DNA from: a virus | DNA length: 48,935 nucleotides | UHGV virus genome: UHGV-1375816 | Strand: one strand, 5' to 3' | Shown: one piece after another, positions 14,027-48,935 of the stretch | Layout: every line of letters begins with the position of its first letter | Numbering within the stretch: the first letter of the stretch is position 1 | Position numbers and translations under genes: made by a program | Notes under the pieces: model-generated | What the model saw: only the letters and a program-made list of their open reading frames with translations | Told to the model about the DNA's origin: nothing | Database searches by the model: none

Positions 14027-14180
14027 ATTTCATTCCGATCAAAAAGTGAACAACTTTGTAGTACAATATAATTACAGTGTACTACCGTATAATTTCATTC
14101 CGATCAAAAAGTGAACAACTTTGTAGTACAATATAATTACAGTGTACTACCGTATAATTTCATTCCGATCAAAAAGTGAA
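14027..14180. repeat. Tandem 65-bp direct repeats (2.4 copies). Each carries the 8-bp inverted repeat GTAGTACA/TGTACTAC and a TATAAT
   Basis: Unit starts at 14027, 14092 and 14157. The third copy degenerates. Confidence 0.85.
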
Positions 14181-14477
14181 CGATTACCCGAAAACACCCC
14201 GAAATGCACGAGGCATAGGGGTGGCGAATTTACTTTCACAATCAGCAGCTTACGAGCATAACCGAAAACCCCGTACATTCTTCCCTTCTTCCTTCTTATA
14301 AACTATATAAACTATACATTATGTATTATACTACATTTATATTATATATTATATACTTTCTATTACTACTAATTACTATTTTATAAGGGTATAAGGGTAA
14401 TAAGTAGTATAGTACTGAAAGTTAAAGAGTTTTTGATACCCCGTTGAAGTACCCCGAACGAGTTTTAACGGGGTGTG
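14172..14477. repeat. Copy B of the ~300 bp repeat
   Basis: Collinear with 48785..48935 + 1..147. Substitutions include ataggggtataggggt -> ataagggtataagggt. Confidence 0.85.
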
Positions 14478-14506
14478 TGGATACTGGCGCAACGTTGTGT
14501 GATAAT
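14478..14506 (+). promoter_or_regulatory. Candidate extended -10 promoter (TGtGATAAT)
   Basis: TG at 14498..14499 and GATAAT at 14501..14506, 24 nt before ATG 14530 (GAGGA RBS). Confidence 0.4.
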
Positions 14507-15951: not shown

Positions 15952-15993
15952 TGGTCAACGTGTGCACACTGTAACTTACGAGGACTCGTAAAC

Positions 15994-17595: not shown

Positions 17596-18261
17596 TTAAA
17601 TCAAACCTTCTTCGGATAATTTTCTGACAATCCACATTTCACCTTCGGCATAAAACATAGGTTGTGAGAACCCGTTCTCTGTCTCACGCATTATTCCGTA
17701 CCCCTTATCGATGAACCATTGCTGAAATACACGTCCACGCTTCACGGAGCGATTGTAGACGCCCATCGAGGCTAGTTGTTTGTTTAACCATATCGCTGAT
17801 TGTCCAAACTTCTGTGCGATTTGAGTGGCGTTATAGAGACCATTGCGTTCTACAATCCGGTCGTAGACGTCTGCTTTTGGTGTCATCTCCTTGTTCTCTA
17901 GTGCGAGACGTTCTTTCTCTTTCTCGCTTTCCAGCAGCGCTTCAAGTGCTTGAATATAGTTTTGTGGTAGTGCGGGTGTATTCACCCGTGATTCCAGCTC
18001 TTGCCAGCGACGAATAATGGCGGCACGCATTTTGATACTGTAGCCCGACACCAGAATCAACGTGTTTTCTTTGTTTAGAAGAAAGACCTTACTCGGTCTG
18101 CCTCCGTTCGACGGCATGACCTTTTCCTCAAAAGTGAGGGAAAGGTCTTGTGCCATTTTTGATATGTCGCGTCGTACATTATCGTGTTCCTTCCCAGTCA
18201 ATTCTGCAATCTCACGGCTGGACATCGTTTGTACTCCGCCGACGTTCATTAAGCTGTCCAT
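17596..18261 (-). CDS. Rha-family regulator with C-terminal ANT/KilAC anti-repressor domain
   Basis: MSSREIAELTGKEHDNVRRDI is the Phage_pRha N-terminal motif. The C-terminal ~100 aa is near-identical to that of 19033..19782. Confidence 0.75.
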   Translation of the reverse strand: MDSLMNVGGVQTMSSREIAELTGKEHDNVRRDISKMAQDLSLTFEEKVMPSNGGRPSKVFLLNKENTLILVSGYSIKMRAAIIRRWQELESRVNTPALPQNYIQALEALLESEKEKERLALENKEMTPKADVYDRIVERNGLYNATQIAQKFGQSAIWLNKQLASMGVYNRSVKRGRVFQQWFIDKGYGIMRETENGFSQPMFYAEGEMWIVRKLSEEGLI

Positions 18262-18340
18262 ATTTCGTATCTCCTCTGTTGTTTGTGTGATTGTGGTTTG
18301 TTTATGGTCACGATGGTGACTGACTAGATTTTGAACTTGC
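18262..18340 (-). promoter_or_regulatory. Conserved control region of Rha paralogue 1 (shares GTTTGTTTATGGTCACGAT with the regions at 18641..18735 and 19783..19849)
   Basis: Direct sequence comparison of the three upstream regions. Confidence 0.5.
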
Positions 18341-18343
18341 GAA

Positions 18344-18640
18344 TCATTTTGTCAGCATTCTTTTGAGTCTCATTGCGCACAGGTAGATGGTGTTATCTTT
18401 ATCCAGCCGGTACTCCCATGCGTTTGGGTTGGTGGTATCATACTGAATGCACATAACCCCTTGATTCGTAACGTAACTCAAATTTGAGTTACGAACATAA
18501 TCTTCATCGTGACCACCATGTAGAGCGCAGAGCATTGAGCGAATGTCTCTGCAAACATTGTCGTGACGCTTCTCAACTAGCGTCGCAATCTCGCGGCTAG
18601 ACATGGTTAGTTCCGATTTTGTGTTTACTAAATCGTTCAT
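18344..18640 (-). CDS. Rha-family regulator (N-terminal domain only)
   Basis: MSSREIATLVEKRHDNVCRDI. Confidence 0.65.
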   Translation of the reverse strand: MNDLVNTKSELTMSSREIATLVEKRHDNVCRDIRSMLCALHGGHDEDYVRNSNLSYVTNQGVMCIQYDTTNPNAWEYRLDKDNTIYLCAMRLKRMLTK

Positions 18641-18735
18641 CTCTGTTCTCCCCTCTTGTTCGCGTGAGTATAGTTTCGATAAAAATCACGACCCGTTCAA
18701 ATCGATTTGTTTATGGTCACGATTAACGATGTGAT
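18641..18735 (-). promoter_or_regulatory. Conserved control region of Rha paralogue 2, with TCGTGAC direct repeats and a TATACT -10
   Basis: Shared with the other two upstream regions. Confidence 0.5.
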
Positions 18736-18756
18736 TGACCACAATTGGCCTCTTAA

Positions 18757-19011
18757 TTACTTTCTTTTACTCCGAATGTGAAAGTTTGCTTTGTCCATCA
18801 TTTCTTTACGCCAGCAAATCCCGGTACCCATGCACGCCGGGTCGTCACTTTCCGCGTAACCGTATTCATTTTCATGATACGTGCAAATCGTATCGGTTTG
18901 CTCATCGTAAATCTGGAATTGCTCGCTCTGAGCACTGTGGGCACCACTGCAGTAAATTGCCGCAGCCACGATGACAACCAACTGAATTTTAAATTTGTTT
19001 AACATTTTCAT
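18757..19011 (-). CDS. Small secreted Cys-containing protein with a signal peptide
   Basis: MKMLNKFKIQLVVIVAAAIYCSGAHSA is a signal peptide with an AHS-A cleavage motif. GGGGAG RBS. Four Cys in the mature part. Confidence 0.6.
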   Translation of the reverse strand: MKMLNKFKIQLVVIVAAAIYCSGAHSAQSEQFQIYDEQTDTICTYHENEYGYAESDDPACMGTGICWRKEMMDKANFHIRSKRK

Positions 19012-19032
19012 ATCTCCCCTGTTATTTTTAAC

Positions 19033-19782
19033 TCAAATCAAACCTTCTTCAGATAATTTTCTGACAATCCACATTTCACCTTCAGCATAAAACATGGGTT
19101 GTGAGAACCCATTCTCTGTCTCCCGCATTATCCCGTACCCCTTATCGATGAACCACTGTTGAAATACACGTCCGCGCTTCACTGAGCGATTGTAGACGTC
19201 CATCGAGGCTAGTTGTTTGTTTAGCCATATCGCTGATTGTCCGAACTTCTGGGCGATCTGAGTGGCGTTATATAGGCCATTGCGTTCTACAATCCGATCG
19301 TAGACGTCTACTTTTGGTGCCGCTATCGACAGTTTCTCCTGCGCAATTAGTTTCTGCTCGTACTCGGTAGCCCATGCCCTCGCGGCTTCTGCTGGATTTG
19401 TGAAGTCTGGTAGTTGTTGTTTGCTGGCATTCTCCAGTTCTTGCCAACGGTCTACTAGTCTGGCAGTAAATTCCGGTGACAATTGGGCGACCACAATGAT
19501 ACTGTCTCGCTTACCCCGTTCGCCTTCGAACATGAATACTTTTTCCGAGCGAAGGCGACCTAACGAGTCGGTTTTTTGTTCATCCTCAATTTGAGGACGG
19601 ACGATCACACCGTTGTCCGCCAGAGTTTCGATGGTACGCTTCACGTTGTCATGACGCTTCTCAACCAGCGTCGCAATCTCGAGGCTAGACATAGTTAGTT
19701 CTAATTTCATGTTTATTAGATCGTTCATCTCTGTTCTCCATTTGTTTGTGTGAGTGTAGTTTCGATGAAAATCACGACCCAT
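19033..19782 (-). CDS. Rha-family regulator with C-terminal ANT/KilAC domain (longest paralogue)
   Basis: MSSLEIATLVEKRHDNVKRTI. 19033..19340 is ~93% identical at the DNA level to 17596..17900. Confidence 0.75.
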   Translation of the reverse strand: MGRDFHRNYTHTNKWRTEMNDLINMKLELTMSSLEIATLVEKRHDNVKRTIETLADNGVIVRPQIEDEQKTDSLGRLRSEKVFMFEGERGKRDSIIVVAQLSPEFTARLVDRWQELENASKQQLPDFTNPAEAARAWATEYEQKLIAQEKLSIAAPKVDVYDRIVERNGLYNATQIAQKFGQSAIWLNKQLASMDVYNRSVKRGRVFQQWFIDKGYGIMRETENGFSQPMFYAEGEMWIVRKLSEEGLI

Positions 19783-23585: not shown

Positions 23586-24232
23586 GTTTAATTAACCTTC
23601 TGGTAAAGCGCGGTCCACAGCTTGGGTCGCTTCAGTTCGATGCTGTCCTGTCTGATGACCTTGACGCCAGCGTGGATATCGTACAGTACCCCATTGAGAC
23701 AGGTACGCCAATTGCGGACCACATCATTTATCAGCCTATTCGTTACACGATGACGGGTGCGGTATCGAATAACCCATTGAAAGTTAGTATCACTGATTTC
23801 ACCGGGGCGTTGACAAATCTCGTCGATGACAATCCGTTTATTGCCGCGGGCGCGGGTCTGTTCGCGGGGTGGTTGAGCGGCTCGAATGAAACTCGCTCCA
23901 GTACGACACTGAACACTTTGCTCGATTTCATGTACTCCGGACAGGTGTTCACAGTAGATACGGGTGAAATTACGCTGAACAATATGGTCATTCAGCGTAT
24001 CGGGCGCTCCAAAGACCCGGAGAATGAGAACGGACTGATATTTGTTGCTGAACTGCAGCAGATTGTCACGCTTGACCGCGTGGCGAACAGTTCACAACCG
24101 GCACAGTATCAGCTAAACAGTAACGACGTTTCCAGCACATCCATATCCGGACTGATTGAGCGTGGCTACATTAATGTGAAGACAGCCGCAACGAATGTTG
24201 CCAACCAGGTTACGACACTTTTGGATTTGTAA
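23582..24232 (+). CDS. Baseplate protein (candidate)
   Basis: Position. The start overlaps the previous stop. Confidence 0.4.
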   Translation: MSLINLLVKRGPQLGSLQFDAVLSDDLDASVDIVQYPIETGTPIADHIIYQPIRYTMTGAVSNNPLKVSITDFTGALTNLVDDNPFIAAGAGLFAGWLSGSNETRSSTTLNTLLDFMYSGQVFTVDTGEITLNNMVIQRIGRSKDPENENGLIFVAELQQIVTLDRVANSSQPAQYQLNSNDVSSTSISGLIERGYINVKTAATNVANQVTTLLDL

Positions 24233-24233
24233 A

Positions 24234-24260
24234 AAAAAAGCCCCGGAGTACGGGGCAAAC
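24234..24260. terminator. Hairpin GCCCCGgagtaCGGGGC preceded by A9. A terminator in the minus orientation, possibly weakly bidirectional
   Basis: The T-run is present only on the minus strand. Confidence 0.45.
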
Positions 24261-24471
24261 ATGCAGGAGCACAACAGAGAGAGAGAGCACGGTTTACAGG
24301 TTAAACGTCATCTAAACTCTAAACCGTTATATTGGTCGAACCGCCGCGGTGACCAACCGCTCAGTGTACACTTGGCTACACATTCCGGCTACCCGCTGAT
24401 GCAAGGAAAGGAACACCCCGGACCGCTAAAGACACATGTGCTATATGCCTGTGAATAAATAATTACATTGT

Positions 24472-24496
24472 TTGACGTGAGTGTCAATAGTATACT
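24472..24496 (+). promoter_or_regulatory. Palindromic site TTGACGTGAGTGTCAA followed by TATACT, upstream of the baseplate operon
   Basis: The spacer is 13 nt here (non-canonical). The alternative -35 TTGTTT gives 17 nt. Confidence 0.4.
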
Positions 24497-32653: not shown

Positions 32654-32995
32654 CTAACCGTAAGGCTTCCACACGACCACGGATGCTTTTTCACATTGCC
32701 TCACCATATCCGCAGTCCCATTACCGCCGGGAAACGCAACACAGTAATCGGGTTTTCCAAAGTTTAACATTGCCCAATTTCGCTTCGGTCCGGCCCCTTT
32801 ACCATGTGCATTCCACAGGGCATCCATTCTCATAACGAACACGCCGTGTTTCTTCGCCCACATGTCAGCGATGCTATCCGTGCCTCTCGCACCACCGTGG
32901 ATAATTAGTTCAATTTTGAACGGCAACATCTCCATAGCTTTTTCAAACGCATCAAAATCCGAATAATCCCGCCCACCTGTTATGAGAACTTTCAT
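32654..32995 (-). CDS. DUF2493 / SLOG-family (DprA-like Rossmann) protein
   Basis: MKVLITGGRDY...IIHGGARGTDSIADMWAKKHGV...HGKGAGPKRNWAML matches the DUF2493 pattern. Confidence 0.6.
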   Translation of the reverse strand: MKVLITGGRDYSDFDAFEKAMEMLPFKIELIIHGGARGTDSIADMWAKKHGVFVMRMDALWNAHGKGAGPKRNWAMLNFGKPDYCVAFPGGNGTADMVRQCEKASVVVWKPYG

Positions 32996-33585
32996 TTTGT
33001 GACCCCCAACAACGGTAAAACTAACTTTTCCGCTTCTTTCACATAATATTCGTAGTCCAGACTACCCCAGTCGAAATCCTTAGCGTCGGCACACTCTGTC
33101 ACCTTCCACCCCGCGCACATACTTGTTTCACGTACTGCATCATGCTTGCTGCGGCTCTTCGTGTGGATACGTTCATCCCACGGTATACCGATGCTGTCGA
33201 GTTCTCCCGGTTGCCCTGTAATCTCACGCATTACCGCATTGTACACGTCGTCTTTGACACCATTCTTGCGCTTCCATGTGCCGGGTGTGCCGGTTGGTGG
33301 TAACAGCTTAACCAGTGACCCACCATTGCGCGAGATAAACACACGTGTGGTGTTCTGCATCTCCTGTTCAGCACCCCATTCAGGCCAACGCATTACCAGA
33401 CGTGCAGAGCGCGGTACTTTAGCGCGCAGCATGAAGTCGAACGGGTCACGATGCCGAGTGATGAATGTGCGGATGTCCTCACCGTGTACGAGGGCGGCTT
33501 CGGCAGCGCGGGCAACAATCATCGCCGATGGGTCTTGATGCCACTGGTATTTGTACTCGTAACACCCTTTTCTTTTAATCTTCAC
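32992..33585 (-). CDS. Candidate C-terminal (thumb, KxY) fragment of the split family-B DNA polymerase
   Basis: Begins VKIKRKGCYEYKY (KxY-like) with a GGAGG RBS before GTG 33585. It lies immediately downstream of the homing endonuclease gene that follows the PolB N-fragment. Confidence 0.4.
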   Translation of the reverse strand: MKIKRKGCYEYKYQWHQDPSAMIVARAAEAALVHGEDIRTFITRHRDPFDFMLRAKVPRSARLVMRWPEWGAEQEMQNTTRVFISRNGGSLVKLLPPTGTPGTWKRKNGVKDDVYNAVMREITGQPGELDSIGIPWDERIHTKSRSKHDAVRETSMCAGWKVTECADAKDFDWGSLDYEYYVKEAEKLVLPLLGVTK

Positions 33586-34411
33586 GGGTTGCCTCCAGCA
33601 TTTCTAAAATTCGATTGTCCCATTTCAACCATTCGGTACAACCATCAAAACCGGATAATCCAGCATTAACGAAAGAAGAATGATATTTTCTCTCCAAGTT
33701 CCTAGCGTCGTCGACCATCATCATTCTCATGAGTTTGAATCCGAACGGGGTTGCCCTTTTCAACTGTGAGAAGCGCCTGGTTGGTCTATTGGTTATTCCT
33801 ACCTTTACAAATTTCGAGTCATCACTGCGGAGAAAATAGATATATCCGGGCAAGGATGGATTGAAACCACCGTATTCGCAACAATATGGACACCCCGTAC
33901 CCTTGTTGCATACATTATCGGAGGTGGCATCCCATTCATGACCATTACCACATCGGAATCGAGATAACTTTCGACTACTACCACGATAAATCAGACAACT
34001 TAGCCCTCTCGCCGCTATCCGCTCATTTATATCTTCCACCGACAATCTCACTCTCTTCGAGCAGTGAGGGCAACCTGATGAACGCATCACACTATCGGCG
34101 GTCGTTTCCCATTCATGACCATTGACACAGCGGAATCGCGATTTACCCATGACACTACCCGAATACCTAATGCACAATATACTCCTGGTCGACAACCTTT
34201 TATTTATTTCTTCCAACTTAAGCTTCGCCCTACCGGCACAATGGGGGCATCCGTTACCAGACAGTACCGCATCTGCGCGGACAGACCACAAATGCCCGTG
34301 GGAGCATTTGAAATTGGATTTCCTCATTGTCGAACCAGCATAGGATATACAAATCAACCCACGTTCATGGATTCTCTCGTTGATCGAATCGATGGTGTGT
34401 CTCATTTTCAT
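33575..34411 (-). CDS. T5orf172-domain homing-type endonuclease with zinc-ribbon repeats, inserted in the PolB gene
   Basis: Three CxxGHEW...GxGCPxC modules plus C-terminal KVGITNRPTRRFSQLKRATPFGF...CTEWLKW. ATG 34411 overlaps the PolB fragment stop (ATGA). Confidence 0.7.
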   Translation of the reverse strand: MKMRHTIDSINERIHERGLICISYAGSTMRKSNFKCSHGHLWSVRADAVLSGNGCPHCAGRAKLKLEEINKRLSTRSILCIRYSGSVMGKSRFRCVNGHEWETTADSVMRSSGCPHCSKRVRLSVEDINERIAARGLSCLIYRGSSRKLSRFRCGNGHEWDATSDNVCNKGTGCPYCCEYGGFNPSLPGYIYFLRSDDSKFVKVGITNRPTRRFSQLKRATPFGFKLMRMMMVDDARNLERKYHSSFVNAGLSGFDGCTEWLKWDNRILEMLEATRED

Positions 34412-35931
34412 TCTATTACCATTATATAACTGTTCACATCGCGCTGATAAAGAGATTTCACAATGTCGGTCTCCAGATTCAGCATTGTCGTTTTTTCCCA
34501 TTCGGCACAAATCGATTCAACTAAAGTTTCGTATTTGTTTTCGTAAAAGATGACGATTCCGTCAGTATTAGTTTGGGGCACTACTAACCCTGGTACGCGA
34601 GTCGTAAGTTGATCCACTAACATCGCCAAACAAAGCTGCCCCGTGATGGTAATACTCAGGAGACACTTGTGGTCGCAGAACGGGCTAAACTTGCTCCCCA
34701 TGTTCCCAAAGGTAGAATTTAACGCAAGTTTCAATGTCGCGTCGACAGTTTTATCTCCCGCTCGTTTGGCATCGCGACGACGAATGAATAGTTGTTCGTA
34801 TACGTCACAAAAAATTTCACTAAGGTGTTCTGGGTAATAACGATTCTTAATTGAGATGGATGGGTACATACTCGTACAGTCTTTGTTTTGCAAATTGTGT
34901 GTTCGGGTAGAATGTACAACGTAGTTCGGAATTCCACTGTGGATACCACCCAAACCGAAAGTATATTCAACGCCGTCGACAACGGCGACCATGTCATTGA
35001 AAACGCCCTTCGTGGTTAGTAACTCATCCTGCTGTTTCTTCGTGAGTACAACCCCACGAATGCGTTCCAGAATTTGATTGAACTCCGGTCGTTCGAATTT
35101 GATATAAGGGGGTATGCAATCAGCGAGCGCGATACGTTCACGAATAGTTACCCCTGAGCAATCCACCCCCGCCTTTTCCAGTTCATGAACAAATATATCT
35201 TTACCGATTTTGGTGTCGGCATGATTCATAAAGTTACGTCCGTATTGCTTTGTCAGTTCCTCGCGGAAATGAATTTTGTCGAGTGAACGTACAAAGAATT
35301 TAAGTGTTTCACGAACGTCGTGCTTGTTGTATGCGATGAGGAAATCTTTCTGCTGGTCGTTCAACACCATTTCGACCGGGAATGGCAGGTCTTTTACGTT
35401 GGGGGACCGCATGCCTACTTCTAACGCCTTCAGGCTGGTACGTCGGGCTTTATTGTCGAAGTGGTTTATTTTGTACAGGTCAATCTGCTCGAAAATCTGG
35501 TCGCGGTCCCATATAATTTCTGGCCACTGACCTTCGGGCTTAATCTGTGATTGCGCCTTCGCATAAATCTGTTCCAGTGTACAACCCGGCGTATTGACCA
35601 CGTAGTGTAGCACCGGATAGTCGAATGCCAGGTTATTAAATCCAATCCCACGGGCCTTACTACGTCCCAGGTTGAATACAAATTCGATTAATTGCGGCTG
35701 CTCGTTTTTACGATCACTGATTTCGAAGACTAACTCCATACCTGTCGCAGCGTGAATAAATGAGGCGGTGAAGATGTTCTTGTATGTCTCTAAATCGTAT
35801 CCCCAGTCTCGTGGGTCCAGTGGTGCAACGCTGGAGAACGCCGAATCAGCCCCACAGTGGGGGCAATTGTGGAGGTCAGCAGGATAATTTTTACCACACG
35901 TTGCATCCTCGCATTTTGATAAATAGTGCAT
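34408..35931 (-). CDS. Family-B DNA polymerase, N-terminal fragment (zinc finger, 3'-5' exonuclease, palm motifs A, B and C)
   Basis: Exo I WGYDLETY, Exo II FNNLAFDYPVL, Exo III YNKHDV. Motif A DCTSMYPSI (DxxSLYPS), motif B KLALNSTFG (Kx3NSxYG), motif C TNTDGI. The ORF ends ~45 aa after motif C. Confidence 0.75.
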   Translation of the reverse strand: MHYLSKCEDATCGKNYPADLHNCPHCGADSAFSSVAPLDPRDWGYDLETYKNIFTASFIHAATGMELVFEISDRKNEQPQLIEFVFNLGRSKARGIGFNNLAFDYPVLHYVVNTPGCTLEQIYAKAQSQIKPEGQWPEIIWDRDQIFEQIDLYKINHFDNKARRTSLKALEVGMRSPNVKDLPFPVEMVLNDQQKDFLIAYNKHDVRETLKFFVRSLDKIHFREELTKQYGRNFMNHADTKIGKDIFVHELEKAGVDCSGVTIRERIALADCIPPYIKFERPEFNQILERIRGVVLTKKQQDELLTTKGVFNDMVAVVDGVEYTFGLGGIHSGIPNYVVHSTRTHNLQNKDCTSMYPSISIKNRYYPEHLSEIFCDVYEQLFIRRRDAKRAGDKTVDATLKLALNSTFGNMGSKFSPFCDHKCLLSITITGQLCLAMLVDQLTTRVPGLVVPQTNTDGIVIFYENKYETLVESICAEWEKTTMLNLETDIVKSLYQRDVNSYIMVIE

Positions 35932-36959: not shown

Positions 36960-37045
36960 CTTGTAAATCCTCTCTGCTAAGTGTGGGAGACCCTCTGTCT
37001 CCCGGTGATTTGAATACTACGTTAGTTTGACGGGTGCGTCAACAA

Positions 37046-38173: not shown

Positions 38174-39043
38174 TTACTCCCCCAAATGCGCTTTAACACG
38201 TGCCACGAACGGACCGATTTTATCCGGGTGGGCGTTCAGTTCCTGTACCGACAACATACCGTCCTGCGCCAGCAGCGTGTTCACCGTTGCCACATCAATC
38301 TTACCGTGACGCTCGGTCAGGAAGGTCATGAGGCGCGGGAAGTCCCATGTGGTTACTTCCGGTACAGGCGGTGCAACAACTACCGGCGGTGGTACAGGGA
38401 TTGGCGGAATACCCACAACGGTTTGCTCGGTTACCACGCCTGCGTCAGTGTGGAAGTCATCGCCCGGCGGTGTTACGGGTGGTTCGACGTTATCAACTTC
38501 TTCCCGTGTCGGTTCGCCAATTTCCACGGGGTTCGGGGTTTTGACTTCTTCATTGGTCATTACTGGCGTTTGAGTATGTAACTCACCCTTAACAGACTCG
38601 ACAAATGCCGTCCACTCTGCCTCATCCATATCCTTCGGCTTACGACGCAGACGCCACGTGCCGTCCGCATTGAGCGCTTTACTGGCGGAGTGGATACGCT
38701 CGTCCCACGGTGTACCGGTTGAGTCGGCTACAGGAGCAGGTTGAGGGTTGTCCGAGCCTAAATCGGTTTCATACGTTGCACCATTCGCTTCGACCGATAC
38801 AGCCAGCGACTCAACCTGTTGTGCGGTTGTATCAATCTCCGGCTGGAATTCTTCCGCAGTGGTGCGTAGACGCTCCAGCGCAGCAGTCGCTTCGCTCGTG
38901 TCAATGTTCAATTTATACGACAGTTTACCTACAGTCTTACGTGGCTCAGCACCGTGCGCCAGTGCCATTTCTTCCAGCGCTTTACCAAACGCACGCAGCG
39001 CAATGTGGTCGTCGTTCGGGATGGTTAATGTGATATTACCCAT
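38174..39043 (-). CDS. Hypothetical replication-module protein with Pro-rich segment and PWDERIH motif
   Basis: GGAGGA RBS before ATG 39043 (the track's 39163 is upstream). The motif TGTPWDERIHSAS is shared with 32992..33585. Confidence 0.45.
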   Translation of the reverse strand: MGNITLTIPNDDHIALRAFGKALEEMALAHGAEPRKTVGKLSYKLNIDTSEATAALERLRTTAEEFQPEIDTTAQQVESLAVSVEANGATYETDLGSDNPQPAPVADSTGTPWDERIHSASKALNADGTWRLRRKPKDMDEAEWTAFVESVKGELHTQTPVMTNEEVKTPNPVEIGEPTREEVDNVEPPVTPPGDDFHTDAGVVTEQTVVGIPPIPVPPPVVVAPPVPEVTTWDFPRLMTFLTERHGKIDVATVNTLLAQDGMLSVQELNAHPDKIGPFVARVKAHLGE

Positions 39044-39121
39044 GTCTCTCTGTCCTCCGTTGTTGTCGATGTGTTGAACTCTATACCACCATGACGCACT
39101 CGTCAACACTAATTTTAAATT

Positions 39122-39164
39122 TGACACGGGGTGGGTGGTGCGACATAATGACGCCATCGTCAAT
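39122..39164 (+). promoter_or_regulatory. Consensus sigma70 promoter TTGACA, 17-nt spacer, CATAAT, with the palindromic site ATGACGCCATCGTCAA at +1. A second palindromic site lies at 39092..39107
   Basis: Read directly. The palindrome sits in operator position over -10/+1. Confidence 0.6.
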
Positions 39165-39411: not shown

Positions 39412-39689
39412 AAATTAAACAACTGCTCCGACCTTCTTACGGCTGGTACAATTCGGTCAGTAAGAAGGATAAATGGTTCCTCGACGATGTGCAGATACCG
39501 ATGTATGTGGCACGTAAATTAATCAGAAAAGCACGCATGGTCGAGTCGAACAGCGTGCGTAAAGTGTGGGAGATGTGGTTGACATGTGGTGAATCACCTC
39601 TCATAATGGAGCAACGTTTTGACATTGGGAGAGGTGAAACATGGCTAACCATAGAAAAGATATCACTGGTGAAAAATTCGGGATGTTAA
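39408..39689 (+). CDS. Hypothetical protein
   Basis: ORF with ATGA overlap to the previous gene. Confidence 0.45.
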   Translation: MKIKQLLRPSYGWYNSVSKKDKWFLDDVQIPMYVARKLIRKARMVESNSVRKVWEMWLTCGESPLIMEQRFDIGRGETWLTIEKISLVKNSGC

Positions 39690-40306
39690 CAGCAATAAAA
39701 CCAGTTCGCACAAATGAAAGGGGTGGTTGGATTTGGTTATTTAAGTGTGAATGTGGGGGTACAACCGAACGACTCGTCAGTACAATGTTAATTGCTAAAA
39801 AATCTGGAAAAAAATCACATTGTGGTTGTTCACCAGCATTGAAAACGCACGGTCTGTCCAAACGTTTTCGAAAATTAAATTGGGTCTGGACGGCAATGAA
39901 ACAACGCTGTTACAACCCGGAGTGTAAAGACTTTCCTCATTATGGTGGTCGCGGTATTACTGTCTGTCCAGAGTGGCATGATTTCGAGTTATTTCACGCC
40001 TGGGCAATATCCTCAGGGTATAAAGAAAAAGTGACAATAGAAAGAAAAGATGTAGATGGTGATTATTGTCCCGAAAATTGCACTTGGATTGAAAACGAGA
40101 AGCAACCATTAAATAGAACCAATACTCTGAAATACGAGTACAACGGGAAAATGTATGATATCCGTGAACTATCAGAGGTATCGGGTATTAATTATTACAC
40201 TTTGAAGGGTAGGTTAACTCACTACGGGTGGTCGGTAGAACGCGCAATTTCAGAACCATCGTTTAAGGGTAAGAATCAGACATATAAGGGGCCGACAAAA
40301 TGCTAA
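39641..40306 (+). CDS. HNH-family homing endonuclease with N-terminal Cys4 finger. Paralogue of 6155..6838
   Basis: CECGG..CGC, YGGRGITVCPEW, VDGDYCPENCTWIENEKQ. Confidence 0.75.
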   Translation: MANHRKDITGEKFGMLTAIKPVRTNERGGWIWLFKCECGGTTERLVSTMLIAKKSGKKSHCGCSPALKTHGLSKRFRKLNWVWTAMKQRCYNPECKDFPHYGGRGITVCPEWHDFELFHAWAISSGYKEKVTIERKDVDGDYCPENCTWIENEKQPLNRTNTLKYEYNGKMYDIRELSEVSGINYYTLKGRLTHYGWSVERAISEPSFKGKNQTYKGPTKC

Positions 40307-41973
40307 TAATGCGCCCATATCAACAAGACGCTATCGACAATGTGTACGCAAATTGGGCTGTCGGTAAGCGTTTTGTAGTTCTGGTGATGCCGACAGGCAG
40401 TGGTAAAGCAAGCGTACTATGTGAAATTGCGCGAATCGAAGCGGCACGCGGGCAGCGAGTGCTGATAACCGCCCACCGTTCAGAGCTAATATCACAGTTA
40501 AGCAATACATTAGCCAGAAACGAACTCCGTCACAATATAATTGCGGCACACTCGACAATAAAGTATTCAATCAGGCTCCACATGGAGGACCACGGCCGAA
40601 CTTATTACGACCCATCAGCAAAAATAACCGTCGCTTCAGTTCAGTCCGTTAAACAACAACACATCGATGAACTGAAGGCGTACCGCGATAAATTAACAAT
40701 CATAGGTGACGAATTTCACCATTATACGCGCGACTCAAAAACGTGGGGCGGTGTTTTTACACCGCTTGATAACGCGGGTGCACGCGGTTTAGGGTTGACA
40801 GCTACACCATGTCGGGCCGATGGAAAAGGGTTGTCACGTGAAACAGACGGATATGGTGACGCACTCGTTATCGGGCCGGGAATGCGTGACCTTATCGAGA
40901 TGGGTTTTCTGGTGGATTACAAAATTTATTGTCCACCTTCCGATTTACATCTTGATAGAGTTAAAGTCAGCACCACGACTGGCGATTATGCCGAAAAAGA
41001 ACTCAAGGAGGAAATTGGTAAATCCCACATTGTGGGGGACATAGTTCAACACTGGCTAAAATTTACACCCGGTAAACGTGGTGTGACTTTCACTGTCGGC
41101 GTGGATATGGCGGAAGAAGTTGCTGACGCGTACCGCGCAAAAGGTGTGCCTGCTGTAGCTGTATCGGGGAGGATGAAAGACAGTGAACGTATTCAGGCAC
41201 TGCGTGATATTGCCAGCGGAAAAGTTTTACAGATTGTAAACGATAGTGTTCTCACAGAAGGGACAGACGTTAGTTCCCTGGAAGTCGTATCATTTGCGCG
41301 ACCTACGCAAAGCTACGCGCTTTTTTGCCAGATGTTTGGGCGAGGCACGCGGACCAGTCCCGACACGGGGAAGACATATCTCACGGTCATCGATGCTGTA
41401 TCAAACGTCATGCGCCACGGTTTACCGGATGCACCGCGTGAGTGGAGTCTTGACCGCCGGGAGCGTCGCACGGGTAAAAGTGAACCATCGACGGTGCGCG
41501 TGTGTACAGCTTGTGCGGCAGTGTATGAGCGGTTCCTCGACGCATGTCCGGACTGCGGCGAGCCTGTACCTAAACCGGCAGACCGCTCCGGCCCGATGCA
41601 GGTGGACGGCGACCTGTACGAGCTTGACCCGGATGTACTGGCACAGATGCGCAATGAGGTTGTGGGAGCACGTGAGACACCCGAGGCAATGCGCAACAGG
41701 CTGACGGCGATGAATGTACCACCCGCTGGAGTGATGGCTAATGTCAAGCGTCAAAGTGAGCGCCTGGAAGTGCTGGGACGACTGGATGGTCTGATGGCGA
41801 CTATTGCCGGTTACTGGCGACACGACGGCATGAGCGACAAAGAAATATTTCGTAAATTTTTCCTGACTTATCACGTCGACTGGTTAAGTGCACAAGGCCT
41901 GAAAAAAGATGATGCACTAACACTTATGGAAAAAATACAAAATGACGTTGACGGACTCGTCAAAACGCACTAA
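40300..41973 (+). CDS. SF2 DNA helicase (DEAD/DEAH-like) with C-terminal zinc ribbon
   Basis: Walker A VLVMPTGSGKAS, motif II IIGDEFHHY, C-terminal CTACAAVYERFLDACPDCG. Confidence 0.75.
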   Translation: MLIMRPYQQDAIDNVYANWAVGKRFVVLVMPTGSGKASVLCEIARIEAARGQRVLITAHRSELISQLSNTLARNELRHNIIAAHSTIKYSIRLHMEDHGRTYYDPSAKITVASVQSVKQQHIDELKAYRDKLTIIGDEFHHYTRDSKTWGGVFTPLDNAGARGLGLTATPCRADGKGLSRETDGYGDALVIGPGMRDLIEMGFLVDYKIYCPPSDLHLDRVKVSTTTGDYAEKELKEEIGKSHIVGDIVQHWLKFTPGKRGVTFTVGVDMAEEVADAYRAKGVPAVAVSGRMKDSERIQALRDIASGKVLQIVNDSVLTEGTDVSSLEVVSFARPTQSYALFCQMFGRGTRTSPDTGKTYLTVIDAVSNVMRHGLPDAPREWSLDRRERRTGKSEPSTVRVCTACAAVYERFLDACPDCGEPVPKPADRSGPMQVDGDLYELDPDVLAQMRNEVVGARETPEAMRNRLTAMNVPPAGVMANVKRQSERLEVLGRLDGLMATIAGYWRHDGMSDKEIFRKFFLTYHVDWLSAQGLKKDDALTLMEKIQNDVDGLVKTH

Positions 41974-41976
41974 CAT
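41948..41976 (+). promoter_or_regulatory. Promoter TTGACGGACTCGTCAA, 17-nt spacer, TAACAT, overlapping the helicase 3' end
   Basis: Perfect 6-4-6 palindrome. It codes for the helicase C-terminus ...VDGLVKTH. Confidence 0.55.
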
Positions 41977-42478: not shown

Positions 42479-42759
42479 TGGGTATGTGCAGATGTAATCT
42501 ATGTGGTGTAGAAAGTAGTTCCGCTGAAAAACACAACGGGCAGTATGAAACACTCGTCGAGTTAATTTTACAATCCGGCGGAGAGAAACAACTGGTCGAA
42601 TTGATACGTATTTTCAGTAAGCGATTCTGCACGGGTGTCTCAACCAGTCAAGGAGCTAACCTTTTGGCTTACGAAAGACAAGAATTGTACAATGCGGACG
42701 TAATTGCGCTGGCATCCAAAAAACTCCAACAGATGCTGAACGACAGGGTAAGGGATTGA
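42475..42759 (+). CDS. Hypothetical Cys-containing protein
   Basis: ORF with ATGA overlap to the previous gene. Confidence 0.4.
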   Translation: MMGMCRCNLCGVESSSAEKHNGQYETLVELILQSGGEKQLVELIRIFSKRFCTGVSTSQGANLLAYERQELYNADVIALASKKLQQMLNDRVRD

Positions 42760-42784
42760 CCACTCCGTCAACCTGTGCCATACT
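42756..42784 (+). promoter_or_regulatory. Promoter TTGACCACTCCGTCAA, 17-nt spacer, CATACT
   Basis: Palindromic family member, 30 nt upstream of ATG 42814. Confidence 0.5.
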
Positions 42785-42813: not shown

Positions 42814-43095
42814 ATGAGCAAAGATAATATTTTAGAAGTCGCATATGTAATGGCACAGCGTGATGGCTTCGGTAGTCTAACGCGTGATGGTGTCGCAGCC
42901 GAAGCCGGTGTGGCAATGGGTACCATCAATCACCATTGGAAAGTCATGTCAGCTTTGCGCGATGCCGTTATGCAACGGGCGGTGGAGGAAGAGAATCTGG
43001 AAATTATTGCACAAGGTATTGCATTGGGGGATAAAATTGCCAATTCAGCATCCAGAGATGTCAGAGTCAAAGCAGTCAATGAATATCTTCTGTAA
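42814..43095 (+). CDS. TetR-like helix-turn-helix protein (94 aa)
   Basis: ILEVAYVMAQRDGFGSLTRDGVAAEAGVAMGTINHHW matches the TetR_N HTH pattern. The track start at 42775 is upstream. Confidence 0.5.
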   Translation: MSKDNILEVAYVMAQRDGFGSLTRDGVAAEAGVAMGTINHHWKVMSALRDAVMQRAVEEENLEIIAQGIALGDKIANSASRDVRVKAVNEYLL

Positions 43096-43106: not shown

Positions 43107-43787
43107 ATGGGAGGCAAACGTCTAACGACGGTTGATTTCATTGAAAAGTCCACGGGGGTGCATAATGGCAAGTATGACTATAGGAAATCGTTGTACATCA
43201 ACAGTTTGACCAAATTGACAATAACTTGTCCTGAGCATGGGGATTTTAAACGAATCCCCAGTAGTCACCTCCGAGGATATGGGTGTCCAAAATGCGGAGG
43301 GAAACTGAAAAGCAATACCCTCGATTTCATTCGGAAGGCACTTTTAGTTTACGATAACAAATACTCGTATGAAAAAGTAAAATACGTTTCCAATAAAACC
43401 AAAGTCACCATTACTTGCTCCGAACATGGTGACTTCAAGCAAACACCCAATCATCATTTACGTGGGGTCGGGTGCCCGAAATGCGCCAAACATGGATTTA
43501 ACCCAGCAAAAAGTGCCACTATTTACGCAATTCGCTCCGATTGTGGGCAATACGTGAAGATCGGGATAACCAACAACTTCGAACAGAGATTTTCTCAATT
43601 GAGAAGGGCAACACCGTTTGACGTATCCGTCATAGAGCGTATAGAATGTGACGGACAAACAGCACGACAGTTTGAAAAGATGTTTCATGACAAATTCGAA
43701 TCCGCCGGGTTTACGGGGTTCGATGGTGCAACAGAATGGTTGCGATGGTCAACAGAATTACAATACTGGTTAAGGTTACTGAAATGA
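43107..43787 (+). CDS. T5orf172-domain homing-type endonuclease with two zinc-ribbon repeats
   Basis: CPEHGDF...GYGCPKCGG occurs twice. C-terminal YVKIGITNNFEQRFSQLRRATPFDV...ATEWLRW. Confidence 0.7.
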   Translation: MGGKRLTTVDFIEKSTGVHNGKYDYRKSLYINSLTKLTITCPEHGDFKRIPSSHLRGYGCPKCGGKLKSNTLDFIRKALLVYDNKYSYEKVKYVSNKTKVTITCSEHGDFKQTPNHHLRGVGCPKCAKHGFNPAKSATIYAIRSDCGQYVKIGITNNFEQRFSQLRRATPFDVSVIERIECDGQTARQFEKMFHDKFESAGFTGFDGATEWLRWSTELQYWLRLLK

Positions 43788-46054
43788 TGATTACAGAGAG
43801 AAAACAGTACATTCCTTACTCACTCATTAAAGTGGGTGACAAAACAACCAAGCGGCCCCACGGTTCCACAACCAACCCGAATGACTGGTTGACGTATGGT
43901 GACGCACTCGCACGGGGTGCCGACGGAGTTGGATTCGTGTTCACCGATACAGACCCATATTTCTTCATTGACATCGACCATTGTCTAATTGACGGGGCAT
44001 GGTCTCCGTTGGCTGTGGAACTGTGTCAGACTTTCGCCGGGTGCTATGTTGAAATTTCACAGAGTGGAACAGCATTGCACATCATTGGGCGATATTCTTC
44101 CATCCCTGAACACGCTTGTAAAAACATACCGCTCGGTATCGAACTCTACCACACCGAAAGATTTGTCGCTTTGACTGGTTCAAGTGCGCAAGGGTCGTGG
44201 GAACACGATGCCACCGGGGCACTAAATACAGTAATTGCACGCTATTTTCCGAAAGAAGAATCCACGGTATTGGTAAAATGGACAGACTCGCCACAGGTGG
44301 GTAGTAACCCGATTGAGGATGATGCGAAACTCATCGAAAAAGCGTGTGCGGCTAAAGAAGGGGTTTCGGTTGTTTTTGGTGGTAAGGCCACTTTTAAAGA
44401 CCTGTGGAATGGTGTGGTATCAGAAGACGACGACCGTTCATCGCTCGACTCATCTCTCGCCACCCGGCTTTTATGGTGGACAGGCGGAAACTGCGAAAGA
44501 ACTAAGTCACTGATGCTGCAGAGTGGCCTCAAAAGAGATAAATGGTTCACCAATAAGTCATATCTGGAGCGAACCATCCTCAACGCCGCCGGACTTCTTA
44601 CAACCTACTACAGTGTCGGCGCACCGATTGAACTGGTGACTCCTGCTCAGGTTGTTGAGACGGGTGCACCGGTTATCCGCAGTGGGTATCAATTCATTGG
44701 TGGCTCACAACTTGTTGACCACTTCAAAGGCTGCGTGTATGTGGCAGACAGTCACCGTATTCTCACGCCAAACGGTCAGATGCTGAAGTCCGAGCAGTTT
44801 AATGCAATGTACGGTGGCTACGTGTTTGCGCTGGATGACGGTAACGAGAAGACCACCAAAAAGGCTTTTGAAGCGTTCACCGAGAACCAGTGCATTATGT
44901 TCCCGAAGGTTGACCGCTCAACGTTCCGTCCGGACCTGCCGCAGGGTGCCATTATCGAAGAAGACGGTCTGCGTCATGTCAACGCATACGTACCGGTGAC
45001 AGTGGCGAGCGTCCCGGGCGATGTGACACCTTTCCTCACTCATCTGGCCAAACTGTTACCCGTTGAGCGCGACCGCGACATCCTGCTGTCCTACATGGCG
45101 GCGTGCGTACAGTACAAAGGGACCAAGTTCAAGTGGGCGCCATTACTGCAGGGTGTTGAAGGTAACGGTAAAACACTGTTCACACTGTGCGTAATGGAAG
45201 CGGTCGGTTCACGTTACAGTCACATGCCGCCAGCGCAGGAAATTGGCGAGAAGTTCAACGCATGGTTATTCGATAAAATATTCATCGGCGTGGAGGATAT
45301 ATACGTTCCGGAGCAGAAACTCGAACTGATTGAAACACTCAAACCGATGATTACCGGTGAGTACCTCGCTAAACGTGCGATGCAGCAGGACCAGGTAATG
45401 CACCGCCTGTGTGCCAACTTCATGTTCAACAGTAACCACAAGAACGCTGTGCGCAAGACCGCTAATGACCGCCGGTTCGCCATTTTCTACACCGCGCAGC
45501 AGGAGCATATCGACATCGTGCGCGACGGTATGGGTGGAGACTACTTCCCCAACCTGTATGACTGGCTCAAACGTGGCGGTGGATTTGCAGCCGTGACGCA
45601 TTATCTGGAGAACTACGCCATTCCCGCACAGTTTAACCCGGCGACACATTGTCAGCGTGCGCCAGAGACCAGCAGTACTCACGAGGCTGTGACAGCATCA
45701 CTTGGCAGCGTCGAACAGGAAATCATGGAAGCAATTGACGAGGGTCGCCAGGGCTTTGCGGGTGGTTGGGTGAGCAGTAAGGCACTGGACAACCTGTTAC
45801 ACCAGATGCGTGCCGACCGCGCTGTACCGGTGGGTAAACGTCGTGACATGATGCGTCAACTAGGTTACGACTGGCACCCGGCGCTCAAGGATGGACGCGT
45901 GAATAACGTGATAATGATTGACGGTGGTAAGCCACGGTTGTACATCAAGATTGGACACATTCACGCTAACCTCACAAATGCAGCAGACGTGGCGCGCCAT
46001 TACGCGGCGGCACAGGGTGATACAAGCGCTATTGCCTTTGCGGAAACTAAATAA
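43784..46054 (+). CDS. Primase / SF3 helicase (primase-polymerase N-terminal domain + D5-like P-loop NTPase)
   Basis: Walker A VEGNGKT. Large N-terminal domain with an acidic catalytic patch FFIDIDH. ATG 43784 overlaps the endonuclease stop (ATGA). The track start at 43736 is upstream. Confidence 0.7.
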   Translation: MMITERKQYIPYSLIKVGDKTTKRPHGSTTNPNDWLTYGDALARGADGVGFVFTDTDPYFFIDIDHCLIDGAWSPLAVELCQTFAGCYVEISQSGTALHIIGRYSSIPEHACKNIPLGIELYHTERFVALTGSSAQGSWEHDATGALNTVIARYFPKEESTVLVKWTDSPQVGSNPIEDDAKLIEKACAAKEGVSVVFGGKATFKDLWNGVVSEDDDRSSLDSSLATRLLWWTGGNCERTKSLMLQSGLKRDKWFTNKSYLERTILNAAGLLTTYYSVGAPIELVTPAQVVETGAPVIRSGYQFIGGSQLVDHFKGCVYVADSHRILTPNGQMLKSEQFNAMYGGYVFALDDGNEKTTKKAFEAFTENQCIMFPKVDRSTFRPDLPQGAIIEEDGLRHVNAYVPVTVASVPGDVTPFLTHLAKLLPVERDRDILLSYMAACVQYKGTKFKWAPLLQGVEGNGKTLFTLCVMEAVGSRYSHMPPAQEIGEKFNAWLFDKIFIGVEDIYVPEQKLELIETLKPMITGEYLAKRAMQQDQVMHRLCANFMFNSNHKNAVRKTANDRRFAIFYTAQQEHIDIVRDGMGGDYFPNLYDWLKRGGGFAAVTHYLENYAIPAQFNPATHCQRAPETSSTHEAVTASLGSVEQEIMEAIDEGRQGFAGGWVSSKALDNLLHQMRADRAVPVGKRRDMMRQLGYDWHPALKDGRVNNVIMIDGGKPRLYIKIGHIHANLTNAADVARHYAAAQGDTSAIAFAETK

Positions 46055-46075
46055 GCCCTTCGGGGCTTATTTTTG
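46053..46075 (+). terminator. Intrinsic terminator AAGCCCttcgGGGCTT + ATTTTTG
   Basis: Hairpin plus T-run. Confidence 0.8.
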
Positions 46076-46084
46076 CAATTAGTA

Positions 46085-46113
46085 TTGACGGACTCGTCAA
46101 GGTGGGTTATCTT
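46085..46113 (+). promoter_or_regulatory. Promoter TTGACGGACTCGTCAA, 17-nt spacer, TATCTT
   Basis: Perfect palindrome identical to the one at 41948. Confidence 0.55.
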
Positions 46114-48155: not shown

Positions 48156-48734
48156 TTATCTCCCACAATTACGGCATTTACCATTTGCCACATAACGTTC
48201 CGCAATAATATTACAATGCTTGCAAGGCTCATACGGAATATACCAGCGTTTGCCGTCAGCGATGGCCTGCTGGCGCGGTGATTTCATTTTAATGACCCCA
48301 ACGTGAATTCCTGATTCGCTCAGTAACAGGGCGTTTTTCATCGTCTGTAACTGCTCATTCAAAACGGAAATATTATGTTCAATCATGGCGATGGTTTCAC
48401 GCAGTGCGTCAACCTCACCAGCGGTGTTAACAATGGTCGGTTTTGGTTTTTTCCATTCTCCCGTCATGCGTTGCTCGGTTAAGCAGAAGACACATTTACC
48501 AGCGGTGTTACGGACGCCCGGATGTCCACATTCGCTGTTTGGTTTCTTCTGTAGCCTCCATGAGCGACCATCGTTAAGACCGTCGAGAACTTTCTGATAG
48601 AGTTCATTGCGTGCGGGAAGACCCATGTTTTTCGCTTTCACAAAATTATGGTGGTCATGAAGTGCACAAATACTACACAATTCTGTTTCTTTAAATTTTG
48701 TAGTCCCGTGACAATTATCTATAAGATGAATCAT
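48156..48734 (-). CDS. Cys-rich zinc-finger protein (192 aa) with central coiled coil
   Basis: AAGGAGAG RBS. N-terminal C-x11-C-x2-C-x2-H-x2-HH, central ECGHPG..CVFC, C-terminal CKHC...CRNCG. Confidence 0.55.
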   Translation of the reverse strand: MIHLIDNCHGTTKFKETELCSICALHDHHNFVKAKNMGLPARNELYQKVLDGLNDGRSWRLQKKPNSECGHPGVRNTAGKCVFCLTEQRMTGEWKKPKPTIVNTAGEVDALRETIAMIEHNISVLNEQLQTMKNALLLSESGIHVGVIKMKSPRQQAIADGKRWYIPYEPCKHCNIIAERYVANGKCRNCGR

Positions 48735-48784
48735 GTTTCTCTCCTTTTGTAGAGTATATACTATAAAATAATAGAGAATTACGG

Positions 48785-48935
48785 GTCAATACCTCATTTT
48801 ACCCCGAAATACCCGAGGCATCGGGGTGGCGAATTTACTTTCACAATCAGCAGCTTACGCGCATAACCGAACACCCCGTACATTTTTCCCTTCTTCCCTC
48901 TTATAAACTATATAAACTATACATTATGTATTATA
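48785..48935. repeat. 5' part of repeat copy A (continues at 1..147)
   Basis: Collinear with 14172..14330. Confidence 0.85.

Follow-up and report, generated by a model that had tools for sequence, protein, structure and literature searches.

A palindrome within the predicted early promoters of a Klebsiella Jedunavirus genome and a small TetR-type protein as its candidate repressor

The viral genome UHGV-1375816 (48,935 nt; 'the window' hereafter denotes this whole stretch of DNA) matches Klebsiella myophages of the genus Jedunavirus (JustaPhage, MEW1, LPKP33, JD001 and others) and carries a family of palindromes of the form TTGACG-N4-CGTCAA. The best explanation of the palindrome appears to be a combined promoter–operator module of early non-structural transcription units, in which one arm serves as the −35 hexamer of a σ70 promoter and both arms together would be bound by a symmetric protein. 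The whole chain, including a 93-residue TetR-type protein encoded in the window (referred to as mini-TetR) as the repressor of these promoter–operators, is assigned a probability of about 0.55; binding, dimerization, repression, timing and transcription starts are predictions from the sequence. According to the gene layout, which was transferred from the annotation of JustaPhage, the plus strand of the window carries late structural genes broken up by short minus-strand islands of small or mobile genes, and the replication region consists of two operons, one running leftward (39043 downward) and one rightward (39184 onward).

The exact 16-mer TTGACG-N4-CGTCAA occurs four times in the window against 0.00 expected; with up to two mismatches there are 14 matches against 3.2 expected, a number reached in none of 100 shuffles. 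The core TGACG-N4-CGTCA is present in 11 copies (0.11 expected), and the same arms at the other spacings from N0 to N11 give one stray match at N2, one at N10 and otherwise none. This core ranks first in a palindrome scan of the genome, and an unrestricted dyad scan allowing every pair of 5-mers at every gap also placed it at the top (p ∼ 5 × 10−36). The outermost base of the distal arm varies freely; the symmetric core is therefore 14 bp long, the additional 5′ T being part of the −35 hexamer. The family as defined here has 13 members, namely the 11 core copies and two one-mismatch variants (24472 and 42756).

A first-pass annotation of the same sequence had proposed a phage-wide family of at least ten sites, which the genome-wide pattern search confirms, although its list was incomplete: 4082..4097, 37027..37042 (an exact copy), 43618..43633 and 34550..34565 had been missed. 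Two sites placed at 39092 and 39149 are real, with coordinates one base off (the true 16-mers are 39091..39106 and 39148..39163), and the minus-strand marking of 5445 and 13987 was right but should have extended to 7109, 39091 and, by its −10 hexamer, 24472. The supposed weak member at 15976..15992 is a different, 7-2-7 palindrome (TTACGAGgaCTCGTAA, 15976..15991) located 2 nt 5′ of the tail-sheath start codon; it has eight mismatches to the TGACG-N4-CGTCA family and is unrelated to it. The members are listed below together with the rightward early promoter and the gene of the candidate binder (arms in capitals, N4 in lower case).

4069..4097, minus strand: TTGACG gcct CGTCAG, N7, TAGAGT; toward an HNH gene with its start at 4031; identical in the related loci L001 and L002
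5431..5460, minus strand: TTGACG agtt CGTCAG, N8, TATACT, 18-nt spacer; toward a 68-residue open reading frame (ORF) with its start at 5399
7096..7124, minus strand: TTGACG agtc CGTCAG, N7, CATAGT; toward a leftward island with its start near 7049; abuts the ATG (7126) of the plus-strand head protease gene
13974..14002, minus strand: TTGACG gatt CGTCAA, N7, TACACT; toward a 150-residue ORF with its start at 13940
24459..24487, minus strand: variant TTGACA ctca CGTCAA, N7, AATTAT; leftward, toward a unit of about 210 nt without an ORF, terminator at about 24235..24262
34550..34565, no strand assigned: ATGACG attc CGTCAG, without TTG and without a −10; in the split DNA polymerase gene, about 40–55 nt 5′ of the ORF 33575..34510
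37014..37042, minus strand: TTGACG cacc CGTCAA, N7, TAGTAT; toward the gene of a gp2.5-like single-stranded DNA-binding protein (SSB) with its start at 36959
39078..39106, minus strand: leftward promoter P_L with operator O1, TTGACG agtg CGTCAT, N7, TAGAGT; toward the leftward replication operon, first gene start at 39043
39121..39149, plus strand: rightward early promoter P_R, TTGACA-17-CATAAT; spacer without a second arm
39148..39163, no strand assigned: O2, ATGACG ccat CGTCAA, an operator-only palindrome
41948..41976, plus strand: TTGACG gact CGTCAA, N7, TAACAT; within the final helicase codons, toward the nuclease gene at 42008
42756..42784, plus strand: weakened copy TTGACC actc CGTCAA, N7, CATACT; directly 5′ of the TetR-like gene
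42814..43095, plus strand: gene of the 93-residue TetR-type helix–turn–helix (HTH) protein mini-TetR, the candidate binder
43618..43647, plus strand: TTGACG tatc CGTCAT, N8, TAGAAT; inside an HNH ORF, 88 nt 5′ of the primase start at 43736
46085..46113, plus strand: TTGACG gact CGTCAA, N7, TATCTT; preceded by a terminator-like hairpin and T-run at about 46050..46075, toward small ORFs from 46153

Read toward the adjacent gene, 11 of the 13 copies take the form TTGAC(G/C/A)-N4-CGTCA(A/G/T)-N7-TAnnnT, with N8 in two of them. The −35 hexamer of these 11 promoters is TTGACG in nine and TTGACC and TTGACA in one each, and the spacer measures 17 nt in nine and 18 nt in two; all five −10 hexamers quoted in the first-pass annotation (TATACT, TACACT, TAACAT, CATACT and TATCTT) are found at 17–18 nt. 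A −10-like hexamer is present in exactly one orientation at each of the 11 sites, always the orientation that starts with TTG (P = 1.3 × 10−5, given that by the same definition 25% of random positions carry such a hexamer in either orientation). The −10 hexamer precedes the start codon by 29–54 nt in eight of ten promoters and by 88 nt for primase; the distance of 49 nt for the start near 7049 is an estimate. One further palindrome promoter (24459..24487) drives a unit without an ORF. The targets are all non-structural: islands of HNH genes and small ORFs, the gene that opens the leftward operon, and the genes of the gp2.5-like SSB, the nuclease, the TetR-like protein and primase, together with the small ORFs beyond it. 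A generic, independent promoter scan picks the same sites. The earlier reading of the palindromes as −35 elements thus agrees with the σ70-type spacer, the −10 hexamer, the orientation and the distance to gene starts, and the palindrome-bearing sites are very probably real promoters. Recognition by a specialized sigma factor, offered in the same annotation, is disfavoured by hexamers that are close to the σ70 consensus; no sigma or RNA polymerase gene was found among the window proteins scanned, a scan that covered part of the ORFs. Two sites (41948 and 42756) do lie inside the last codons of upstream ORFs, as had been claimed.

Evidence for a reader other than RNA polymerase comes from the pattern of substitutions. 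Orthologous sites in three other Jedunaviruses were located by BLAST high-scoring segment pairs extending across the site, independently of the motif. Substitutions between relatives amount to 1/336 in the arms, 2/168 in the −10 hexamer, 9/196 in N7, 6–8% in the flanks and 24/112 in N4 (Fisher p = 9 × 10−15 for arms versus N4 and 3 × 10−9 for arms versus flanks), with N4 changing at least as fast as the flanks. The arm in the spacer is therefore constrained at least as strongly as the hexamers contacted by RNA polymerase. At the orthologs of 5431..5460, for example, both arms are kept and N4 changes from agtt to aatg, and the N4 of 37014..37042 is cacc in the window and tact in L002 and L003. 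Across 40 genomes or loci with 195 promoter contexts there are 47 distinct N4 sequences, and 190 of the 195 have the inner C of the distal arm, a position left free by the search pattern. As judged from these comparisons, the constraint is on the sequence of the arms and not on their pairing; neither the listed sites nor the 195 promoter contexts showed any compensatory double changes. Frozen arms combined with a drifting N4 argue against a hairpin and against copy-and-paste of a cassette, since copying would also keep N4 and N7.

The position of one copy points in the same direction. O2 (39148..39163) covers the last 2 nt of the P_R −10 hexamer and its predicted +1, in agreement with the first-pass observation that a palindrome overlaps a TTGACA-17-CATAAT promoter; in its orthologs the arms are fixed and N4 is ccat, ggag or ctat. 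A −10 hexamer that abuts or overlaps the palindrome recurs in the divergent control region of the window (CATAAT|GACG), Pantoea phage AAM22 (TAATCT|GACG) and Vibrio phage CP-T1 (TTAAAT|TGACG), and in the latter two a single palindrome is the −35/spacer site of one promoter and the −10/+1 site of the opposite promoter. An operator-type position recurring in three clades is the strongest sequence argument for a reader other than RNA polymerase. The second arm is also not a generic requirement of promoters, because two palindrome-less promoters in the same genome (39579..39607 and 48789..48760) do without it. With the non-−35 arm as conserved as the −35 arm, N4 drifting and an operator-only copy at P_R, the proposal that the sites are operators of a symmetric binder gains support, and there are good grounds to regard the palindrome as a protein operator.

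The first of these palindrome-less promoters is a second TTGACA-17-CATAAT with the same hexamers as P_R, and lies 5′ of an HNH gene (39641..40306) that is missing at that position in the three Jedunavirus relatives compared.

Comparison with related phages, suggested as a check in the first-pass annotation, shows the arms to be conserved in Jedunaviruses and the family to recur in Pantoea, Vibrio and Edwardsiella phages. In AAM22 the same architecture is the top palindrome, with ten core sites. The family is clearly present, with a relaxed inner base, in CP-T1 and in Edwardsiella phage PEi21 (13 copies of TGAC-N6-GTCA in PEi21 against 1.4 expected), and SppYZU01-like genomes from Shewanella phages show it more weakly, with fewer copies. 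The structurally related phages phiPLPE and ZF40 lack both the family and the TetR-like protein. All four clades share a leftward promoter in the gap that precedes the baseplate-spike gene, and the position of the 24459..24487 promoter is conserved in AAM22, PEi21 and CP-T1. The palindrome architecture is conserved across four or five phage clades.

For the single dimeric regulator that had been postulated, the window does encode a candidate, the 93-residue product of 42814..43095, whose binding to the palindrome is predicted. It matches Pfam TetR_N (PF00440, E = 4.6 × 10−7) over the full 47-position profile and also has an NCBIfam match, and its PDB sequence matches are N-domains of the TetR family. 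An AlphaFold2 model built with a diverse alignment has a pLDDT (predicted local distance difference test) of 95.2, and the top 50 Foldseek matches in the PDB all belong to the TetR family. Close homologs are all 92–93 residues long and lie on phage contigs of about 48 kb. The gene order nuclease, TetR-like, primase is kept in every motif-bearing clade. In a presence/absence matrix the proteins common to motif-bearing genomes but lacking in phiPLPE and ZF40 are replication enzymes, a gp62-like protein and the TetR-like protein, the last being the only recognizable sequence-specific regulator among the proteins that co-occur with the motif. The half-site centres of TGACG-N4-CGTCA are 9 bp apart, one helical turn, and the operator is found on the gene's own promoter (35 loci) and on both divergent early promoters, an arrangement of TetR type.

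The promoter of the TetR-like gene reads TTGACC-N4-CGTCAA-N7-CATACT in the window, JustaPhage, LPKP33, MEW1 and AAM22. All 35 Jedunavirus-like and AAM22-like IMG/VR loci (L014–L048) carry this form, with TTGACC and never TTGACG, although the sequence immediately upstream is unrelated among them. The palindrome at this position is also imperfect in PEi21 (TTGACA…) and in the SppYZU01 group (…CGGCAC or …CGCCAT). Such a weakened self-operator is what negative autoregulation with delayed self-repression would predict.

Homologs of the SppYZU01 type (P0121, P0122, P0128, P0129 and P0131; L007 4066..4566) are 166 residues long and carry an N-terminal extension that hhalign matches to the family HTH (92%, E = 5 × 10−7), a similarity that Pfam misses. 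These proteins may be single-chain, double-HTH versions, and the second, divergent HTH copy hints at two HTH units per site.

Several points weigh against mini-TetR as the binder. The C-terminal ligand-binding and dimerization core is absent, with only about 35 residues past helix 4, so that the protein lacks the canonical means of dimerization in a family whose members usually have about 190 residues (range about 180–220). Its co-occurrence with the motif is confounded by phylogeny, as the whole replication module moves together. The recognition helix differs between clades (INHHW, VSFAF and VSYYY) while the TGAC…GTCA core stays constant. Finally, no obvious palindrome family is seen in Alteromonas R9Y2, Pseudomonas Psp6, Vibrio CKB-S1 or Vibrio 97.13, which carry homologs of 31–37% identity; the two Vibrio phages are GC-rich. 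When IMG/VR was scanned with the PEi21 and CP-T1 proteins, the matches were confined to these two phages, and a pattern-limited search detected no relative of the 93-residue regulator in 185,579 representative bacterial genomes.

The proposed mechanism is as follows. In its promoter role, the TTGAC(G/C/A) arm would be the −35 hexamer of host σ70 polymerase, with the CGTCA arm in the spacer at about −25 to −21; in its operator role, both arms would form the site of a twofold-symmetric protein which, when bound, would cover the −35 hexamer and the spacer and exclude RNA polymerase. On infection, host σ70 polymerase would fire all of the palindrome promoters, and mini-TetR would build up through expression of the rightward early operon and through its own promoter. 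It would then fill the −35/spacer sites and the −10/+1 site at P_R and turn early transcription off at P_L, P_R, the internal promoters of the replication operons and the minus-strand 'moron' islands. These islands run antisense to the late structural operons, and their transcription would collide with late plus-strand transcription. Bound internal sites (37027, 41948, 42756, 43618 and 34550) might double as roadblocks. The weaker self-operator TTGACC…CGTCAA would be filled last, giving early shut-off together with negative autoregulation.

An operator read by another phage protein is an unlikely alternative to mini-TetR, although two proteins have to be weighed. The gp62-like protein (38174..39043), whose gene heads the leftward operon, accompanies the motif in AAM22, CP-T1 and PEi21, and the Cys-rich gp79-like protein (48156..48734) does so in AAM22, PEi21 and SppYZU01; Pfam, PHROGs, NCBIfam and PDB searches give no informative match that would assign either to another role, several CxxC pairs in the gp79-like protein suggest zinc fingers, and the TetR-like protein itself fits the phyletic distribution imperfectly. 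Neither protein, however, has a recognizable DNA-binding domain or the autoregulatory arrangement of the TetR-like gene, and the gp62-like protein is undetected in SppYZU01 and the gp79-like protein in CP-T1. The first gene of the rightward operon was considered as a Cro-like conserved binder and rejected, as it is not homologous between clades.

The gp79-like protein (192 residues, minus strand) is encoded next to a 285-bp repeat described below, and its promoter (48789..48760, TTGACC-18-TATAGT) lacks a second arm. Its role may be that of a zinc-finger regulator, perhaps a late activator.

It is a little less likely again that there is no dedicated binder, the spacer arm either tuning σ70 RNA polymerase intrinsically or being the relic of a repeatedly copied or recombined cassette. 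The promoter regions do form islands of similarity between unrelated flanking genes, and homology breakpoints lie within 100 bp of promoter modules in 24 of 179 cases against nine expected (P = 1.3 × 10−5, an enrichment that intergenic regions in general may share). Terminator–promoter cassettes with a shared upstream 'gcaattagtR' also recur. A copied cassette would nevertheless be expected to keep N4, which evolves fastest while the arms are frozen, and palindromes occur where no −35 is possible, at 39148 (over −10/+1, an arrangement conserved in three clades) and at 34550; the strong-looking promoters without a second arm in the same genome are a further difficulty.

The promoter modules coincide with mosaic junctions, as a portable regulatory cassette would. 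The palindrome at 34550, found together with the ORF inserted into the DNA polymerase gene, behaves in the same way: it is present in L001, which has the same split, and missing from the site lists of MEW1 and LPKP33, in which the polymerase is unsplit. A more far-reaching proposal, made only tentatively and on balance doubtful, joins these elements: the operator half-site of mini-TetR would be the σ70 −35 hexamer itself, so that at each of the early promoters of a lytic phage the protein competes directly with region 4 of sigma, and the 16-bp promoter–operator would be a portable plug, brought or acquired by inserting morons or homing-endonuclease genes (e.g. the ORF splitting the DNA polymerase), that enrols them in early shut-off.

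The polymerase gene (32992..35931, minus strand) is split into 34408..35931 and 32992..33585, the inserted ORF being 33575..34510. The recurring unit consists of a terminator-like hairpin and T-run, then 'gcaattagtR' and then a palindrome promoter; it is seen in the window at about 46050..46100, in L002 at 19035 and 19562, in L004 at 43836 and 45474 and in PEi21 at 40325. It recurs in several genera (L002, AAM22 and PEi21), is duplicated in LPKP33 and looks like a separator of small early ORFs.

A host regulator occupying the sites, so that phage early transcription would sense host physiology, is very unlikely. The obvious candidate is RutR, whose box TTGACCAnnTGGTCAA is a 16-bp palindrome bound by one TetR-family dimer, with positions 4 and 13 most important (PMC2475637), and which contacts two successive major grooves (PMC2952853). 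The geometry of the RutR box is identical to that of the phage motif, as are the outer half-sites (TTGAC…GTCAA), ten of 14 consensus positions are shared, and A4 and T13 are always present in the phage sites; the promoter of the TetR-like gene, TTGACCACTCCGTCAA, even matches the RutR consensus at 12 of 14 positions, both key positions included. However, RutR prefers C/G at ±3 and A/T at ±2, whereas the phage sites have G/C at ±3 and no conservation at ±2, and a C/G to G/C exchange at ±3, equivalent to the phage sequence, reduces the affinity of RutR 12.7-fold (PMC2952853). RutR is furthermore a ligand sensor of about 210 residues, bound mostly far from or within genes, in contrast to phage sites in core promoters and a candidate without a ligand domain. 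A host factor would also have to be the same in Klebsiella, Pantoea, Edwardsiella, Vibrio and Shewanella, since phages of all five retain the motif. Host RutR is thus unlikely as the binder: its geometry fits and the inner bases are those it disfavours. The TTGACC of the TetR-like promoter could reflect weakening of the self-operator alone or else cross-talk involving a TetR-family protein of the host. The consensus of FNR is TTGAT-N4-ATCAA (TTGA-N6-TCAA), and an FNR/CRP-type site is excluded by spacing, the phage motif being TTGA-N8-TCAA.

Least credible of all is a palindrome that acts as an RNA or extruded-DNA hairpin (processing site, terminator or translation modulator): perfect copies do fold as 6-bp/4-nt hairpins (−4.4 to −4.8 kcal mol−1), one copy was flagged as terminator-like on the minus strand and the copies at 4082 and 7109 abut late-gene start codons, but the stems are short and weak, their sequence and not merely their pairing is conserved, natural variants break the pairing (only −1.5 kcal mol−1 for TTGACC…CGTCAA) and the hairpin lies upstream of the start of its own promoter and so is absent from its own transcript. 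An intrinsic terminator was rejected, as only one of the 13 copies is flagged, on one strand, and no T-run follows the remaining copies, and so was a structured RNA or DNA hairpin element, with sequence-invariant arms, variants that break pairing and no Rfam match.

The proposed system can be compared with several known ones. In tetR–tetA, the HTH repressor TetR acts at two palindromic operators over back-to-back divergent promoters and controls its own synthesis; TetR-type repression of divergent promoters is textbook knowledge. The phage candidate would share the HTH type, operators over divergent promoters and self-control. It differs in that about a dozen promoters and not one locus would be involved, that TetR is inducible through a C-terminal domain which the phage protein lacks and that the phage operator half-site doubles as the −35 hexamer. 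The PeSL (promoter-early stem–loop) cassettes of T4-like phages are repeated early σ70 promoters with an adjacent hairpin that flank small variable early ORFs at mosaic junctions. The phage modules resemble them as repeated early σ70 promoter cassettes at mosaic junctions, with small early ORFs and a palindrome or hairpin. In PeSL cassettes, however, the stem–loop is separate from the promoter and no repressor is implied, whereas the phage palindrome lies inside the promoter (−35 to −20), is conserved in sequence rather than in pairing and has an operator-only copy. Dispersed operators of phage repressors are also known for C1 of P1 and as the CIRs (conserved inverted repeats) of phiC31. The L5 sites are 13 bp long and asymmetric, belong to a temperate immunity repressor and mainly block elongation. 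The phage palindromes differ from these in being symmetric and nearly all promoter-like, in a group of phages regarded as lytic; the record of CP-T1 gives its source as an induced lysogen. One account of L5 and D29 describes their stoperators as many short gp71-repressor sites which resemble −35 elements, are dispersed intergenically and in some cases coincide with promoters (PMC12266134). The phage palindromes are likewise dispersed, −35-like and coincident with promoters.

Dispersed phage-repressor operators, as in the L5/D29 stoperators, are thus already known. What is new is a putative symmetric operator whose half-site is the −35 hexamer, combined with a very small, effector-less TetR-type candidate; this operator sits in essentially all early promoters of phages that are considered lytic and is conserved across several genera. 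No prior description of the palindrome-promoter family or of its regulator was found in the searchable literature, genome papers included; the 2012 paper on the phiPLPE group mentions tetR-like genes and describes no promoters or palindromes. The sites provide a first explicit early-promoter map and a testable model of early shut-off for Jedunaviruses, which are widely isolated as Klebsiella therapy phages, and for their Pantoea, Edwardsiella and Vibrio relatives. Should the 93-residue protein be the binder, it would be an unusually small effector-less TetR-type repressor, raising the question of its mode of dimerization. An operator contained within the −35 to −20 stretch of a consensus promoter and served by so small a repressor would make an attractive compact part for synthetic circuits and phage engineering. 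The arrangement also suggests a way in which accessory genes antisense to late operons are silenced in time and in which mobile genes are wired into the temporal programme of a phage.

Two further features involve individual palindromes. At 24232..24487 (minus strand), the promoter TTGACActcaCGTCAA-N7-AATTAT runs leftward, antisense to the tail operon, within a gap of about 290 bp, and a terminator (GCCCCGtactCCGGGGC followed by T9, about 24235..24262) lies about 210 nt past it with no convincing ORF between. The unit is a candidate early non-coding RNA; it has no match in Rfam and its fold z-score is only −1.65. Two late plus-strand genes start 1–2 nt past a palindrome, those of a head protein (ATG at 4100) and of the head protease (ATG at 7126), and in the former a Shine–Dalgarno-like GAGG spans the N4 of the 4082..4097 palindrome. 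The palindromes at 4082 and 7109 could affect translation start in late read-through mRNA.

The window looks like a complete, circularly permuted genome because a 285-bp element across its end and start (48801..48935 plus 1..150) recurs at 14196..14480 as a direct repeat, the copies being 95–96% identical. One copy is upstream of the small-terminase gene and the second upstream of neck and tail genes; both contain AT-rich 'tatattatat' runs and a G-rich hairpin-like stretch, and the repeat probably serves as a shared region of late control. Neither Rfam nor a tRNA scan gave a match anywhere in the window. A 65-bp unit at 14025..14154 is present as two perfect tandem copies and a partial third, in the long gap between the 150-residue minus-strand ORF and the neck gene. 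Besides the ORF in the polymerase gene, homing-endonuclease-like genes are found at 3411..4031, 6155..6838, 11545..12507 (CapR/T5orf172), 39641..40306 and 43107..43787. A minus-strand island at 17596..19782 encodes three Rha/KilAC proteins, which are of anti-repressor type. In contrast to the corresponding islands of JustaPhage, LPKP33 and MEW1, it has no palindrome promoter, and it contains internal duplications that include duplicated upstream regions (repeat families D1, D4 and D5).

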